Assembly (NCBI GenBank): GCA_048213135.1
Contig: PS015010.1
Location: forward strand, 248,001 to 312,000
Source: Reclinomonas americana ATCC 50394
Lineage: Eukaryota
DNA length: 64,000 nt
Direction: 5' to 3'
The notes beneath the pieces were generated by a model. It did not search any database, was not told where the DNA came from, and saw nothing but the letters and a program-made list of their open reading frames with translations. How positions within the stretch are numbered: position 1 is the first letter of the stretch; the number at the start of each line of letters is the position of its first letter. A program made the position numbers and the translations under genes. Shown piece by piece: positions 1 through 10,124 of this stretch.

Positions 1-59
1 CGCAGATCGAAGGCATGGTGAAAAAAGTAGCGCACCTGGTAAAGGTGGAACAGATCTAA
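1..59 (+). CDS. rpmD: 50S ribosomal protein L30, C-terminal part (partial at window edge)
   Basis: Frame 3 reads QIEGMVKKVAHLVKVEQI*, the typical L30 C-terminus; lies directly upstream of rplO as in the spc operon. Confidence 0.9.
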   Translation, partial: QIEGMVKKVAHLVKVEQI

Positions 60-114
60 GCTGCATACCCGTTCCTTTCCCATTATTCAATACATCATTT
101 TCCATAACAAGCGA

Positions 115-5102: not shown

Positions 5103-6206
5103 ATGATTAAAAAGATCGATCGTTACATACTGGGAAAGTACCTCACCACTTTCTTTTTCTGCCTGCTGTTATTCACGGTTATTGTAGTTGTGGTGGACAT
5201 CAGCGAAAAGACCGACGACTTTGTGAAATCGAAGCTGCCTGTTTCCAAACTCATCACCGATTACTACTATGGTTTCATACCCCGTATCGATGCCATGTTG
5301 TTCCCGTTATTCGTTTTTATTTCGGTGATCTTCTTTACTTCCAAAATGGCGACCCGTTCCGAGGTGATCGCTATCCTCAGCAGTGGGGTCAGTTTCCGCC
5401 GTTTCCTGGCGCCGTTTGTGGCCGGGGGACTGATATTATCGTCCATACTCTGGCTGGGTTACCAGTACGTGGTACCCCGTGCCAATAAGATATGGGTGGA
5501 CTTTGACTCCAAATACATCAGCCCGCCGCCAGCCGGGGCTACCGCCAATGAACGGGGCACTTATAAACAGGGATTGTATTTCAAGATCGATCCTAATACC
5601 TATGCCCATATCCGTGGCTATGATACGGTAAGCAAACTGGGCACCGGTTTTTCGGTGCAACGTTTCTCTGGCGAAAAACTGCAGTATGCCATGCGTGCCG
5701 AGAGTTTCCGCTGGGATACCGCTAAAATGAAATGGAACCTGTCCAATACGGTAGAACGTTTTGTTGACAGTATTTCAGAACGAGTAAAACGATCGGCGGA
5801 ACTGCAGATGAACTACAACTTCAAACCACGCGACCTGCGTAAAGATGAATACCTTAAAGACCAGCTGCAGACACCAGAGCTGAATGAGTTCATCGCACTG
5901 GAACGGATGCGGGGCTCTGAAATGCTGAACCCCCTGCTCGTGGAACGCTATAACCGAGATGCGATCCCCGTATCGGTACTTATCCTCACGCTCATCGGCG
6001 CTATACTGGCTTCCCGTAAAATAAGGGGTGGCAGCGGCTTCCACCTGGCACTGGGCGTGTTGCTGAGCGTACTGTACATTTTATGCAGCCGCTTTACCAT
6101 TGTATTTGCCAGTAAGGGTAACTTTACACCTTTCCTCGCAGCCTGGACGCCCAATATCATTTTCGGCCTGCTGGCCTTCTACCTGTACAGGAAGGCGCCG
6201 AAATAA
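5103..6206 (+). CDS. LptF/LptG family LPS export permease
   Basis: IDRYIL start, SEVIAILSSGVSF motif, 3+3 TM layout with periplasmic domain, LAAWTPN near the C-terminus. Confidence 0.9.
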   Translation: MIKKIDRYILGKYLTTFFFCLLLFTVIVVVVDISEKTDDFVKSKLPVSKLITDYYYGFIPRIDAMLFPLFVFISVIFFTSKMATRSEVIAILSSGVSFRRFLAPFVAGGLILSSILWLGYQYVVPRANKIWVDFDSKYISPPPAGATANERGTYKQGLYFKIDPNTYAHIRGYDTVSKLGTGFSVQRFSGEKLQYAMRAESFRWDTAKMKWNLSNTVERFVDSISERVKRSAELQMNYNFKPRDLRKDEYLKDQLQTPELNEFIALERMRGSEMLNPLLVERYNRDAIPVSVLILTLIGAILASRKIRGGSGFHLALGVLLSVLYILCSRFTIVFASKGNFTPFLAAWTPNIIFGLLAFYLYRKAPK

Positions 6207-7831: not shown

Positions 7832-8593
7832 ATGAAATTTATATTTTTTATTGCCGCTTCCCTCTTGTTATCACTCAGCTCCAGTGCCCAGGCCGGTAAA
7901 CCCGCTGCCACTGCGCCAAAATCCAACCCGCATTTAAAAGTATTCGGCCTGGCTGCCGAAACCGGCGATATTAATACCGCTATTATGGCGCTCAATTACT
8001 ATATATCCGATCAGGGTGCCAATACGCCTTATGCCGATACGCTTGCCATGATGTATATGCAAAGCGGTGCTTATGTACAATGCTATTACTGGGCCGATAA
8101 ACGCCTGAAAGCAAAACCCGATGATGTAGGCCTGATGGAAATGAAAGGTGTTTGCCTTGATAAACTGCAGCAACCCAAAGAGGCGATCGAGGTGTTTGAA
8201 AAACTCTATGCCAAAACACAGAGTCCCTATCATGCCTATAAACTGATGGAACTCCAGTATAATATCAAACGACTGGCCGAATGCCTGGGTACCGCCCTCA
8301 GCGCCGAAAAACTCCAGTACAAACCCGACTATACCATGACCTACAATGTGGGTGAACAGGTAGGACGTACTTACCTGCAGGCAGGTATATTCAACATCCA
8401 CGGGCTGGCTTTGTACGACCTGGACAGGAAGGCGGAAGCCAAAACTTATTTTGAAAAAGCCGTTGGCCTCGACAGTAATTTTGTACTGGCCAAACAGAAC
8501 CTGCTGGCTATGAAAACACTGGAAACTAATGGAGGAAAGGCGAACCCGGTAAGCCCCAATACACCGGCTTCACCAGCGAATAAACAAAACTAA
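7832..8593 (+). CDS. Exported TPR-like repeat protein
   Basis: Signal peptide (..SSSAQA); helical repeats such as GLALYDLDRKAEAKTYFEKAVGLDSN. Confidence 0.7.
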   Translation: MKFIFFIAASLLLSLSSSAQAGKPAATAPKSNPHLKVFGLAAETGDINTAIMALNYYISDQGANTPYADTLAMMYMQSGAYVQCYYWADKRLKAKPDDVGLMEMKGVCLDKLQQPKEAIEVFEKLYAKTQSPYHAYKLMELQYNIKRLAECLGTALSAEKLQYKPDYTMTYNVGEQVGRTYLQAGIFNIHGLALYDLDRKAEAKTYFEKAVGLDSNFVLAKQNLLAMKTLETNGGKANPVSPNTPASPANKQN

Positions 8594-8600
8594 AATTGAT

Positions 8601-8631
8601 TTTGTCATAAACACAGGAGCCGCTATATTTG
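8601..8631 (+). promoter_or_regulatory. Bacteroidota housekeeping promoter for tRNA-Ala
   Basis: TTTG (8601-8604), 19-nt spacer, TATATTTG (8624-8631), 10 nt before the tRNA. Confidence 0.75.
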
Positions 8632-8640
8632 CAGCCCGAT

Positions 8641-8656
8641 GGGGGATTAGCTCAGT

Positions 8657-8687
<31 letters not shown>

Positions 8688-8714
8688 CCACCAGTTCGAA
8701 TCTGGTATTCTCCA
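8641..8714 (+). tRNA. tRNA-Ala (anticodon GGC)
   Basis: Cloverleaf: GGGGGAT/ATTCTCC acceptor stem with G3:U70, CTTGC-AT-GGC-AT-GCAAG anticodon arm, GTTCGAATC T-loop; CCA not encoded. Confidence 0.97.
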
Positions 8715-8719
8715 CACAG

Positions 8720-8747
8720 ACTCCCGCTTTTTTAGCGGGAGTTTTTT
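8720..8747 (+). terminator. Terminator after tRNA-Ala
   Basis: ACTCCCGCT-ttttt-AGCGGGAGT plus T run. Confidence 0.8.
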
Positions 8748-8751
8748 ATTG

Positions 8752-8815
8752 TGGTATTCTGAAAGCGCTTGCAGTCCCGACGCATGTCGGGAAAGAGGCC
8801 ACCAGTTCGAATCTG
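8752..8815 (+). pseudogene. Partial tRNA-Ala duplicate with the anticodon loop replaced by a palindrome
   Basis: AGCGCTTGCA (8764-8773) and AAGAGGCCACCAGTTCGAATCTG (8793-8815) are identical to tRNA 8664-8673 and 8682-8704; between them is G-TCCCGAC-GCAT-GTCGGGA; TGGTATTCT (8752-8760) equals tRNA 8703-8711. Confidence 0.85.
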
Positions 8816-8891
8816 TAAAAATTCTGAATGTAACAAGGGTATTATCCGAAGATAACTATTGGGGAACTCTTCTGGTTTTGCTGAAAAAACA

Positions 8892-9143
8892 ATGATGTTT
8901 CATGTGTACATTATTTATTCAGAAAAACTTGATCAGTATTATATTGGATATACAAGCAATCTGAATCAGCGTCTCCGGGAACATGATAATCAATTCTCAA
9001 CTTTTACTTCAAAGACTTCAGATTGGAAGATCAAGTACAGTGAGGCATTTGATACCAGACATGCTGCAATGAGGCGTGAAAAAGAAGTGAAAATGAAAAA
9101 AAGCAGCAAGCATATTGAATGGCTGATCAGGCGAAGTAAATAA
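8892..9143 (+). CDS. Small standalone GIY-YIG nuclease family protein
   Basis: HVYIIYS...YYIGYTSNLNQRLREH...AMRREKEVK pattern (two Tyr strands, conserved Arg/His and Glu); about 83 aa; AT-rich. Confidence 0.88.
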   Translation: MMFHVYIIYSEKLDQYYIGYTSNLNQRLREHDNQFSTFTSKTSDWKIKYSEAFDTRHAAMRREKEVKMKKSSKHIEWLIRRSK

Positions 9144-9254
9144 CTGGAAAACATCCGCATTTCACCCTCTTCTGCATCCAACGAAAAATATTGGCACCCT
9201 TTTTTCTAAAGGAGTAGTATAGCCGGGAATATTATCCAATCAAAAGAAGATGTT

Positions 9255-10124
9255 ATGATGCAAAGAAAGAATATTATCTATTGGCTTCCAGTATTGTTAG
9301 CGTTAACACAGTATGCCTGCAACAATAAACAGGCGGAACAAAAGCAACCTGTGCAGGTGGTTAAACCCAAAGAAAGAAAATCACCGGCGGTAACGGGTTA
9401 CACCTTTGCCAGTGGAAAAGAATGGTGGAAGTTAAACCAGTCAGACGACCGTAAAATCAGTATTGTACTGGCTATAAACAGGACAGACTCGGCGCATTTT
9501 AAAAAGATGGATAGCGTGCTTATTCCGCAGGATTTCTCCGGGGATGTAGAGGCGTATCTTCCTTTTCCCTATCATGTAGATGCGCTTAATGATGTGAACA
9601 AGATCATCTTCTTCTCTTACCCCGCGCAGGTATTCGCTGCGTATGAGCGCGGAGAATTGTTGTATACCGGGCCAACCAATATGGGCAGGAAAAAAGACCC
9701 CACACCAGCCGGGTTATATTTCACCAACTGGAAAGCGGAAAAGACAACCAGTACGTTTAATGACGAGTGGGAACTGAAATGGAATTTCAACATACAAAAT
9801 AAAGAGGGTATAGGGTTTCACGAATATGAACTGCCGGGATACCCTGCTTCGCATTCCTGCCTGCGCCTGCAGGAAAAAGACGCCAAACTACTCTATAACT
9901 GGGCCGATCAATGGGTATTAAAAGGACAGGATAACCTGCTGGCCAAAGGAACACCGGTAATTGTTTTCGGTACGTATAATTTCGATGGACCGAAGCCCTG
10001 GTGGCGACTGGTGACAGATCCCGGTGCATTACGTATATCGGAAACGGAAGTGGAACATATCCTGTCTCCTTACCGCGACAGTATCATGTCAGCACAAACC
10101 CGGCGGGCTCTGGTTAATCGTTAG
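9255..10124 (+). CDS. L,D-transpeptidase (YkuD family) lipoprotein
   Basis: Lipoprotein-like signal (..QYAC); PTPAG and GIGFHEYELPGYPASHSCLRL catalytic motif. Confidence 0.85.
   Translation: MMQRKNIIYWLPVLLALTQYACNNKQAEQKQPVQVVKPKERKSPAVTGYTFASGKEWWKLNQSDDRKISIVLAINRTDSAHFKKMDSVLIPQDFSGDVEAYLPFPYHVDALNDVNKIIFFSYPAQVFAAYERGELLYTGPTNMGRKKDPTPAGLYFTNWKAEKTTSTFNDEWELKWNFNIQNKEGIGFHEYELPGYPASHSCLRLQEKDAKLLYNWADQWVLKGQDNLLAKGTPVIVFGTYNFDGPKPWWRLVTDPGALRISETEVEHILSPYRDSIMSAQTRRALVNR

Follow-up and report, generated by a model that had tools for sequence, protein, structure and literature searches.

SsnA of Neisseria meningitidis is a monomeric, single-domain GIY-YIG nuclease of 94 amino acids, assigned to CDD family cd10448 (Chenal et al. 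2025, PMC11893778). It binds a hairpin repeat known as NTS (CGTCATTCCCGCGMAVGCGGGAATCYRG), with the core TTCCCGCG..CGCGGGAA, in single-stranded DNA only and in one orientation. The strand is cut a few nucleotides upstream of the hairpin, and according to the same report neither double-stranded DNA nor RNA is acted upon (PMC11893778). At least one related hairpin (SRM) is found in the flanks of 71% of the genes encoding SsnA homologues. The NTS-ssnA-NTS layout has been called insertion sequence (IS)-like and likened to REP/RAYT and IS200/IS605 elements, a family of nuclease/hairpin pairs has been predicted, and SsnA modulates natural transformation (PMC11893778). The locus described here hosts a tRNA-Ala(GGC) gene, a partial copy of the same tRNA carrying a hairpin, and a single-domain GIY-YIG gene. 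It lies in a 64,000-nucleotide (nt) stretch of DNA, hereafter the window (positions 248,001 to 312,000 of contig PS015010.1, assembly GCA_048213135.1 of Reclinomonas americana ATCC 50394). On balance we favour the reading that it is a decayed copy of a cassette widespread in Bacteroidota, and present also in Ignavibacteriota, Calditrichota and Chlorobiota, made of an Ssn-like nuclease and of its probable recognition hairpin embedded in tRNA sequences.

Other described systems share single traits with this locus. Phage T6 SegB is a GIY-YIG homing endonuclease which cuts inside tRNA genes, at the motif RAWTSGAAC, and drives the tandem amplification of the tRNA and segB unit via microhomology that the 5' end of the tRNA shares with the 3' end of segB (PMC13096335). 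The T4/T6 tRNA cluster is thus similar for the GIY-YIG gene beside tRNAs, the tandem tRNA and nuclease units, and the junction between nuclease 3' end and tRNA. SegB is in contrast a multi-domain homing enzyme of phages acting on double-stranded DNA, and tRNA copies with a constant hairpin are not seen in the available part of PMC13096335. No phage record matched the window protein in tblastn searches, and a GIY-YIG gene of Azospirillum lipoferum was the one match among plasmid records. REP/RAYT and IS200/IS605 elements, as they are usually understood, also feature a small enzyme gene located between cognate hairpins, action on single strands, and hairpin units that multiply without the coding sequence. 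Their enzymes have however the HUH fold, and are not GIY-YIG hydrolases, for which no strand transfer is known; nor do they have a tRNA scaffold. Integrase-type tRNA islands feature, as here, a direct repeat of part of a tRNA, with the intact tRNA on one side. They differ in that no integrase is found here and the cargo is a single 250-nt gene; moreover, the repeat bears an engineered-looking hairpin, is found at both sides of the tRNA, and forms tandem arrays.

The tRNA-Ala(GGC) gene is the only tRNA of the window, ARAGORN and Rfam being in agreement. It is preceded by a promoter-like site (Table 1); TTTG at 8601-8604 and TATATTTG at 8624-8631 also fit what we take to be the Bacteroidetes -33/-7 consensus. 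Further downstream, two segments of the tRNA recur. The left piece corresponds to tRNA positions 24-33 (3' strand of the D stem and 5' strand of the anticodon stem), the right piece to positions 42-64 (variable region, 5' strand of the T stem and T loop), ending before the 3' strand of the T stem is complete. The 23-nt repeat is found at two places in the window, and no match was found in any of 100 shuffled sequences. The tRNA tract TGGCATGC (8674-8681; positions 34-41, anticodon included) is replaced in the copy by a G followed by the hairpin TCCCGAC GCAT GTCGGGA (8774-8792). The copy ends 76 nt before the start of the nuclease open reading frame (ORF), and the hairpin lies 100 nt 5' of the ORF. 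All the elements listed in an earlier note on this DNA, that is the tRNA, the repeats, the hairpin swap, the out-of-order 9-mer and the AT-rich GIY-YIG gene of 83 amino acids, are in place.

Table 1. Features of the locus (window coordinates) and types of arm replacement in the tRNA copies of the relatives (tRNA positions).
Feature	Position	Strand	Evidence or remarks
Promoter-like site just 5' of the tRNA	8602..8631	+	sigma-70-type scan: TTGTCA-16-TATATT at 8602-8629, 10/12 matches
Intact tRNA-Ala(GGC)	8641..8715	+	ARAGORN; Rfam RF00005, 63.6 bits, E 3e-13
Terminator-like hairpin and T run after the tRNA	8718..8750	+	hairpin 8718-8744: 11-pair stem, loop of 5
9-nt TGGTATTCT, out of order	8752..8760	+	exact match to tRNA 3' part, 8703-8711
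Partial tRNA copy, left piece AGCGCTTGCA	8764..8773	+	exact 10-nt repeat of 8664-8673
Hairpin TCCCGAC-GCAT-GTCGGGA	8775..8792	+	sequence reading; 7-bp stem in RNA and DNA fold predictions
Partial tRNA copy, right piece	8793..8815	+	exact 23-nt repeat of 8682-8704
AT-rich spacer between copy and nuclease gene	8816..8891	+	32.9% GC; without the terminator-type hairpin that relatives have there
Single-domain GIY-YIG nuclease gene, intact, 83 amino acids	8892..9143 (stop 9141-9143 included)	+	Pfam PF01541
Replacement of the whole anticodon arm	left flank ends 26-28, right flank starts 44-46		
Replacement in tRNA-Ala copies: loop and 3' strand only of the anticodon arm	33-35 to 41-42		
Replacement of the D loop	12-14 to 17-20		
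Replacement of the variable loop, Flavobacterium tRNA-Asn	45 to 51		
Replacement of the T arm or T loop	50 or 57 to 59-66		

A first protein search identified 21 relatives of the window protein. The database ORFs P0004, P0010, P0012, P0014 and P0018 include stretches of translated tRNA, as the N-terminal ARALAWHARG; such extensions correspond to translated tRNA-Ala(GGC), and gave the first hint that the gene always follows that tRNA. By using the peptide pattern L[DN][KR]YYIGY[TS], 79 loci (designated by L numbers where they must be told apart) were retrieved from a species-representative genome collection, and the architecture counts reported here hold for this sample. Most loci belong to Bacteroidota (Chitinophagaceae, Flavobacteriaceae, Bacteroidales, Sphingobacteriaceae, Weeksellaceae), and a few to Ignavibacteriota, Calditrichota and Chlorobiota. 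More than 300 nt of upstream sequence were present in 70 of the 79. A tRNA encoded by the same strand ends at most 200 nt 5' of the first gene copy in 63 of the 79 loci, typically at a distance of 25-55 nt, and ten kinds of tRNA are represented. By kind, the tRNA closest on the upstream side is Val-TAC (17 loci), Ala-GGC (16), Asn-GTT (13), Lys-TTT (5), Asp-GTC and Arg-TCT (4 each), Arg-ACG (3), Met-CAT and Leu-TAA (2 each) or Pro-GGG (1); none was found in 12 loci. The spacer between tRNA and gene consists of a terminator-like hairpin plus a T run, and the start codon follows a few bases on. The spacer of this type next to the window tRNA is what usually separates tRNA and nuclease start codon in the relatives (L004, L008, L013, L001 and others).

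A second tRNA sequence is found at the other end of the gene. In the 55 loci that could be evaluated, having an upstream tRNA, a near-complete gene and at least 150 nt of downstream sequence, an exact copy of at least 10 nt of the upstream tRNA falls between -30 and +200 of the gene end in 50, against 0 of 55 control regions; L021, L024, L026, L029 and L048 lack it. Downstream copies are typically exact for tRNA positions ~42-75 (31-34 nt), and the diverged D arm overlaps the last codons of the ORF. Copies have in all cases the same orientation as tRNA and gene, and lack the 5' acceptor strand of the tRNA, homology beginning at positions 2-23. The mean number of acceptor pairs is 2.4 of 7 in the copies, close to chance, though the same imperfectly indexed script scores only 4.3 of 7 in intact tRNAs. 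The canonical order of the cassette is intact tRNA, terminator-like spacer, nuclease ORF, and hairpin-bearing tRNA copy with an exact tRNA 3' half. The earlier note had proposed, as a test, to look in the flanks of homologues for tRNA fragments interrupted by CCCGA..TCGGG hairpins, and these are overwhelmingly present. Uninterrupted relatives are mostly 79-111 amino acids long, the excess length being translated tRNA copy. The tails of the ORFs in L028, L033, L034, L037, L041, L042 and L046 are translated tRNA (..SEHPD, ..GSNP), artefacts of ORF calling through the tRNA or its copy.

Some hairpin-bearing copies are called tRNAs by ARAGORN, as 'tRNA-Ile(tat)', an 87-nt 'tRNA-Pro(ggg)' or 86-88-nt 'tRNA-Asn' (L032:5252-5330; L035:5233-5319 and 5580-5666; L051:4663-4869; L056:4851-4938), and two copies score above the Rfam tRNA threshold (L056, 32.3 bits; L036, 29.7 bits). 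It is likely that all these calls are spurious tRNA annotations of Bacteroidota genomes. No intact tRNA-Ala is found within ~400 nt upstream of two close relatives of the window gene (L001:4900-5000 and L011:4740-4800), where only degenerate remnants of the tRNA 3' end and the usual spacer are found. Either a functional tRNA nearby is not needed for the cassette to persist, or these contigs, from metagenome-assembled genomes (MAGs), are rearranged.

The hairpin is the constant part of the copies. It has the form TCCCGA(N)-loop-(N')TCGGGA and stands in for the anticodon arm; the window hairpin is of the same class. Sequences fitting TCCCG-N3-14-CGGGA are found 112 times within 1 kb of the genes (168,490 nt; 53 of the 79 loci) versus 6 times beyond 2 kb (381,816 nt), an enrichment of about 40-fold; an alternative pattern gives a similar ratio. 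When 168 candidate hairpins located within 1.5 kb were mapped onto the local tRNA, neither flank was mappable for 31 of them. Boundaries fall at fixed tRNA positions, and four different arms or loops are used (Table 1). Among 110 distinct hairpins, six pairs of the stem are conserved in sequence and the seventh covaries (T:A 34, A:T 25, C:G 20), being Watson-Crick in 80 of 90. Hairpin-bearing copies are found also 5' of the intact tRNA, in L020, L005, L027 and L021. In L020, four tandem units located upstream of the tRNA have both the D loop and the anticodon arm replaced. The hairpin is thus not restricted to the anticodon loop; D loops, variable loops and T arms are replaced as well, and copies are found at both sides of the intact tRNA. 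What emerges is that three elements are conserved in association, namely a minimal GIY-YIG gene, a tRNA gene, and copies of that tRNA in which a constant hairpin is set, and that duplication and decay have left clear traces.

Tandem arrays of two to four near-complete gene copies, with a period of ~350-380 nt, are found in 10 loci; in L008 four units are almost identical. Units may also lack the ORF. Arrays of ORF-less units are found in L013 (two units), L036 (two) and L056 (at least 10 over ~1.1 kb, with a masked N run inside), and the units upstream of the tRNA in L020, L005, L027 and L021 are similarly ORF-less. The junctions in L013 resemble a precise loss of the ORF. In Flavobacterium branchiicola (L056:3730-4850), the ORF-less units, at least 10 and of ~100-110 nt each, are located between two normal tRNA-Asn genes and the nuclease gene. 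Each consists of the 3' part of tRNA-Asn, its variable loop bearing a hairpin, and closes with a terminator; in alternate units the T loop bears a second hairpin. In L008 and L056 the terminator after the last tRNA copy of the array is unlike the internal spacers, which indicates that the borders of the unit lie at the 3' end of the tRNA and where the last copy ends. In-frame stops make pseudogenes of L019 and L029, and several second copies are truncated. The GC content is lower than the locus average in 69 of 80 ORFs (median -4.3 points). In 16 of the 79 loci the sequence ends no more than 600 nt from the gene, as would be expected if repeats break assemblies.

Against this background, the simplest reading of the window locus is that of a decayed copy of the cassette, in which the unit adjoining the tRNA would have lost the ORF and part of its tRNA copy (8752-8815). 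Seen as an array, one ORF and parts of two tRNA copies would be gone. The window tract 8765-8825 is 80.6% identical over 62 nt to the four tandem hairpin-bearing copies of L020, and 78-84% identical over 49-54 nt to copies located after the gene in L001, L003, L006, L016 and L074. The out-of-order TGGTATTCT may be either a remnant of the tRNA 3' end or the ...EWLI... codons at the end of a deleted nuclease ORF, and comparison with the ORF-less units of L013 suggests that an ORF may have been deleted.

The window protein looks intact, and is predicted to have the GIY-YIG fold. The match to PF01541 spans residues 3-73 (E 4.1e-15; 56.3 bits against a cut-off of 22.6). All the positions invariant in 31 diverse relatives are kept (L13, Y16, Y17, G19, R27, H31, T39, E63, K67, K70), as are the nearly invariant ones; Y6, also kept, is invariant in one alignment (A1) and conserved in at least 90% of the sequences in another (A2). 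Catalytic roles of the conserved tyrosines of GIY and YIG, arginine, histidine and glutamate are presumably those known from I-TevI and UvrC. The AlphaFold2 model (mean predicted local distance difference test, pLDDT, 87.9) has the element order E-E-H-E-H-H, with a three-stranded sheet flanked by helices. Best Foldseek matches in the PDB were UPF0213 BH0048, the Slx1 nuclease domain and At-HIGLE, with UvrC-N and I-TevI more distant. No NCBIfam model was matched above its cut-off, TIGR01453 (group I intron endonuclease) reaching 16.9 bits against 56. A profile search of a large protein set gave at least 3654 relatives at E <=1e-5 among the candidates collected, and those with a name are all 'GIY-YIG nuclease family protein' or 'putative endonuclease'. 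The gene is AT-rich (34.9% GC, versus 48.2% for the window).

In a maximum-likelihood tree (76 rows, 82 columns), in which many forks are unresolved, nuclease clades track the kind of tRNA. The tRNA labels change 19 times, against a mean of 48.5 after shuffling, and none of 200 shuffles is as low, although near-copies inflate the clustering. The window protein falls inside the Ala-GGC clade (support 98/90), which includes 22 Ala rows and 3 rows with no detected tRNA. Asn forms a group and Leu-TAA a clade (100/99), and Val requires at least three origins. Chitinophagaceae host both the Ala-GGC and the Arg-ACG lineages. The order LptF/G, citrate synthase, (TPR), tRNA-Ala, nuclease is shared by the window and five Chitinophagaceae loci (L002, L004, L006, L016 and L019); in L008 and L074 citrate synthase is on the opposite side. 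The YkuD gene located downstream in the window was found in none of the loci. The cassette at the window site looks old, and its right border looks like a synteny break.

The similarity to Ssn systems concerns protein, hairpin and layout. Single-domain GIY-YIG proteins of 80-100 amino acids are involved in both, the gene is flanked by hairpins of 16-30 nt, the cassette core (T)TCCCG..CGGGA(A) matches that of NTS, and the succession of hairpin, gene and hairpin is IS-like. That the nuclease is Ssn-like, and that the hairpin would be its recognition element in single-stranded DNA, is well supported by analogy. An intermediate case is hosted by the Azospirillum lipoferum 4B plasmid AZO_p3 (L080:1357-1975), where a gene for a GIY-YIG protein of 97 amino acids lies between sufB and sufC, with, at each side, an inverted pair of hairpins (CGTCATCCCCGCGAAGGCGGGGATCCAG) almost identical to the Neisseria NTS consensus. 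By its sequence this locus is a textbook NTS-ssn-NTS cassette inside an operon, and 4 matches to the published SRM motif are found in its flanks. The window and Azospirillum proteins share 36% identity in BLASTP (E 1e-12), and the family alignment matches the Azospirillum protein with 98.3% probability in hhalign (E 1.6e-14), values that do not separate Ssn from other small GIY-YIG families.

The differences from Ssn systems are marked. Hairpins are here embedded in partial tRNA copies, in place of an arm or a loop, the gene is fixed directly downstream of a tRNA gene, and the hairpin is not dispersed genome-wide. Two CCCGA-N3-8-TCGGG palindromes are found in the 64-kb window (shuffle mean 0.28; 4 of 100 shuffles reach 2). 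The second, at 117-130 (CCCGAGTACTCGGG), is at chance level and near no tRNA, so that within the window the palindrome is not a genome-wide repeat and hairpins are confined to the cassette. Five species are shared between our 79 loci and Supplementary Data 4 of Chenal et al. (Pedobacter rhizosphaerae, Chryseobacterium ureilyticum, Mesohalobacter halotolerans, Gelidibacter gilvus and Flavobacterium tegetincola); Terrimonas rubra is absent from that table. A cd10448 homologue is flagged in all five and an SsnA homologue by tblastn in four, and SRM counts are at or below the shuffled expectation, 0-0.85 fold (PMC11893778).

Several observations weigh against reading the window locus as an Ssn-like cassette. 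The window locus has the hairpin at one side alone, a truncated tRNA copy, and no such copy after the ORF. The published degenerate SRM motif has no match in the window, on both strands, nor in the 79 loci. The CCCG/CGGG core is all that the hairpins described here have in common with it; the conserved GTCAT flank on the upstream side, described as crucial (PMC11893778), is absent from them. The closest relative of solved structure, by sequence, is UPF0213 BH0048 (E 4.6e-10), EF2693 being also matched. The Azospirillum relative is not linked to a tRNA. All 79 loci were retrieved by a single pattern, so that the tRNA linkage holds for the part of the family fitting that pattern. Finally, the gene order kept in the five Chitinophagaceae loci argues for long vertical residence and not for active spread.

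If the hairpin is the target of the nuclease, a mechanism may be sketched that would account for the observed turnover. When the locus becomes single-stranded, during replication, heavy transcription of the tRNA or entry of incoming DNA, the nuclease would bind the hairpin and nick nearby. The nick would fall at the inner edge of tRNA-derived direct repeats, and would thus stimulate recombination between them, the host machinery repairing the break from another tRNA-derived sequence. Outcomes could be tandem amplification, loss of the ORF, and gene conversion holding the copies identical to the local tRNA. Occasional transfer to other tRNA species might take place by short-homology recombination through the conserved D-stem and T-arm segments. 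The boundaries of the hairpins coincide with the places, in the D stem and in the variable region/T arm, at which similarity between different tRNAs resumes, which would let hairpin and gene move between tRNA species. Pushed further, the cassette would be a selfish element guided by homology, in which a minimal nuclease acting on single-stranded DNA sees its own hairpin only, and the tRNA sequence around it provides a homology arm that is portable and nearly universal. From nicks at the hairpin would follow tandem amplification, arms kept identical to the local tRNA, and occasionally a move to the cognate tRNA of another genome or to other tRNA species. The target would be chosen by tRNA homology and not by a DNA-binding domain, and arm-for-hairpin swaps would be the footprint of recombination. 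This extension we regard as possible but tentative. The suggestion of a selfish system made in the earlier note stands in part. Arrays, ORF-less units, pseudogenes and low GC content fit a selfish, or at least a recombinogenic, cassette, but the synteny in Chitinophagaceae marks it as old at this site, and not as a recent invader.

Other explanations must be weighed against an Ssn-like cassette. A classical free-standing homing endonuclease would cut tRNA genes that have no cassette, as double-stranded DNA and within or close to the anticodon arm, the cassette would be copied in during repair, and the hairpin copy would be immune to cleavage or scarred. SegB, which cuts tRNA genes and promotes tandem tRNA/segB amplification, provides a precedent (PMC13096335); units are tandem also here, the 3' ends of the ORFs run into the tRNA copy, and nuclease clades track the kind of tRNA. 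We nevertheless hold homing to be unlikely. The 83 residues amount to a catalytic domain only, with no room for a DNA-binding domain (enzymes of the Seg type have ~200 amino acids or more), and an intact, presumably cleavable tRNA is always found beside the gene. The same hairpin recurs across all kinds of tRNA and in four arms, with covariation in the stem, unlike a scar, and the characterised single-domain relatives do not cut double-stranded DNA (PMC11893778). Neither the cutting of the anticodon arm of the intact tRNA, nor the role of the modified copy as a scar or a cleavage-immune site, both proposed in the earlier note, found support. In the biochemistry reported for Ssn, the closest family, the hairpin is instead the recognition element of the nuclease itself, in single-stranded DNA (PMC11893778). 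Remnants of an integrase-borne element are effectively excluded, with attL/attR duplication of the tRNA and a GIY-YIG gene as unrelated passenger, as is an assembly artefact behind the duplicate. Integrative elements duplicate tRNA 3' parts, and the exact repeat of the relatives does span tRNA positions 42-75. No integrase or transposase domain was found, however, when 17 of the 18 ORFs of at least 180 amino acids located between 1 and 22 kb were scanned against Pfam (the one left out is an antisense ORF inside the citrate synthase gene), which bears out what the earlier note had said. The same small architecture, with the nuclease gene alone between the repeats, is found in independent assemblies of many taxa, the hairpin substitution is conserved, and the window copy is internal (positions 24-33 and 42-64), without the tRNA 3' end.

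It is conceivable that the nuclease has been domesticated, and that, in line with what has been proposed for Neisseria SsnA, it acts with its hairpins around tRNA loci to modulate either recombination or the uptake of single-stranded DNA, tRNA copies being by-products. The tRNA-Ala/nuclease synteny across five Chitinophagaceae loci, the intact window ORF with all its invariant residues, and the effect of SsnA on natural transformation (PMC11893778) speak for such a host function. It is nonetheless improbable in view of the frequent pseudogenes, truncated copies and ORF-less arrays, of the GC content below the locus average in most ORFs, and of window hairpins confined to the cassette and not found around other genes. 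A function at the RNA level is very improbable. In this view the hairpin-bearing copy would be transcribed along with the tRNA as a tRNA-like RNA, and would either signal the processing or the stability of the nuclease mRNA or act as a decoy. Copies are always oriented as tRNA and gene, arm-for-hairpin swaps keep a cloverleaf-like layout, covariation in the stem suits RNA as well as DNA, and tRNA searches do pick up some copies. Yet the copies lack the 5' acceptor strand, and their acceptor pairing is about at chance with the imperfectly indexed script mentioned above; loss of the acceptor strand makes a standard substrate of RNase P or RNase Z unlikely. The predicted RNA fold of 8749-8895 is no better than those of shuffled sequences (z -0.21). 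Rfam searches matched no family besides tRNA, both in 14 related loci at the gathering threshold and in the window tract 8300-9400 with E values up to 10, where all other matches were sub-threshold terminator look-alikes. SsnA, moreover, does not bind RNA (PMC11893778). An Ssn-like nuclease paired with a tRNA-embedded hairpin remains the reading that we favour.

The principle of the nuclease/hairpin pair is already published (Chenal et al. 2025, PMC11893778). The tRNA scaffold, the fixed place behind tRNA genes and the arm-for-hairpin swaps appear undescribed. In a literature search covering few of the subscription journals, no description of tRNA-embedded hairpins beside GIY-YIG genes was found. 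The words 'tRNA', 'Bacteroid' and 'Flavobacter' do not occur in the main text of PMC11893778, and nucleases, hairpins and Bacteroidota are not mentioned in PMC9897764, which deals with tRNA gene fragments.

In the neighbourhood of the cassette in the window, SecY, LptF/G, citrate synthase, a TPR protein, a YkuD transpeptidase, a DUF4198 protein and a glycoside-hydrolase/SusD cluster are encoded. The gene next to the nuclease starts at 9255, 111 nt after the end of the ORF. An ORF of 88 amino acids listed at 8629-8895 (MQPDGGLAQLARALAWHARG...) is translated tRNA plus tRNA copy, and not a gene. The minus strand hosts between 13058 and 22274 GH16, GH30, GH3, GH5/CBM6 and SusD-like genes; this cluster resembles a polysaccharide utilisation locus and is unrelated to the cassette.

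The cassettes matter for annotation and assembly, as the units yield false tRNA calls and false protein extensions (ARALAWHARG, SEHPD, GSNP) and coincide with contig breaks. If nuclease/hairpin pairs are orthogonal, those described here would be additions to the proposed toolbox of sequence-specific cutters of single-stranded DNA. The tables of PMC11893778 flag cd10448 homologues in these species and show there no enrichment of the hairpin motif. If our reading is correct, the missing partner hairpin of the Ssn-type nucleases in these species would be hidden in tRNA copies beside the gene. The biology of Ssn systems would then be testable outside Neisseria, and in particular whether nicking at the hairpin drives recombination at tRNA genes, in a compact system tractable in Flavobacterium species such as F. 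johnsoniae.

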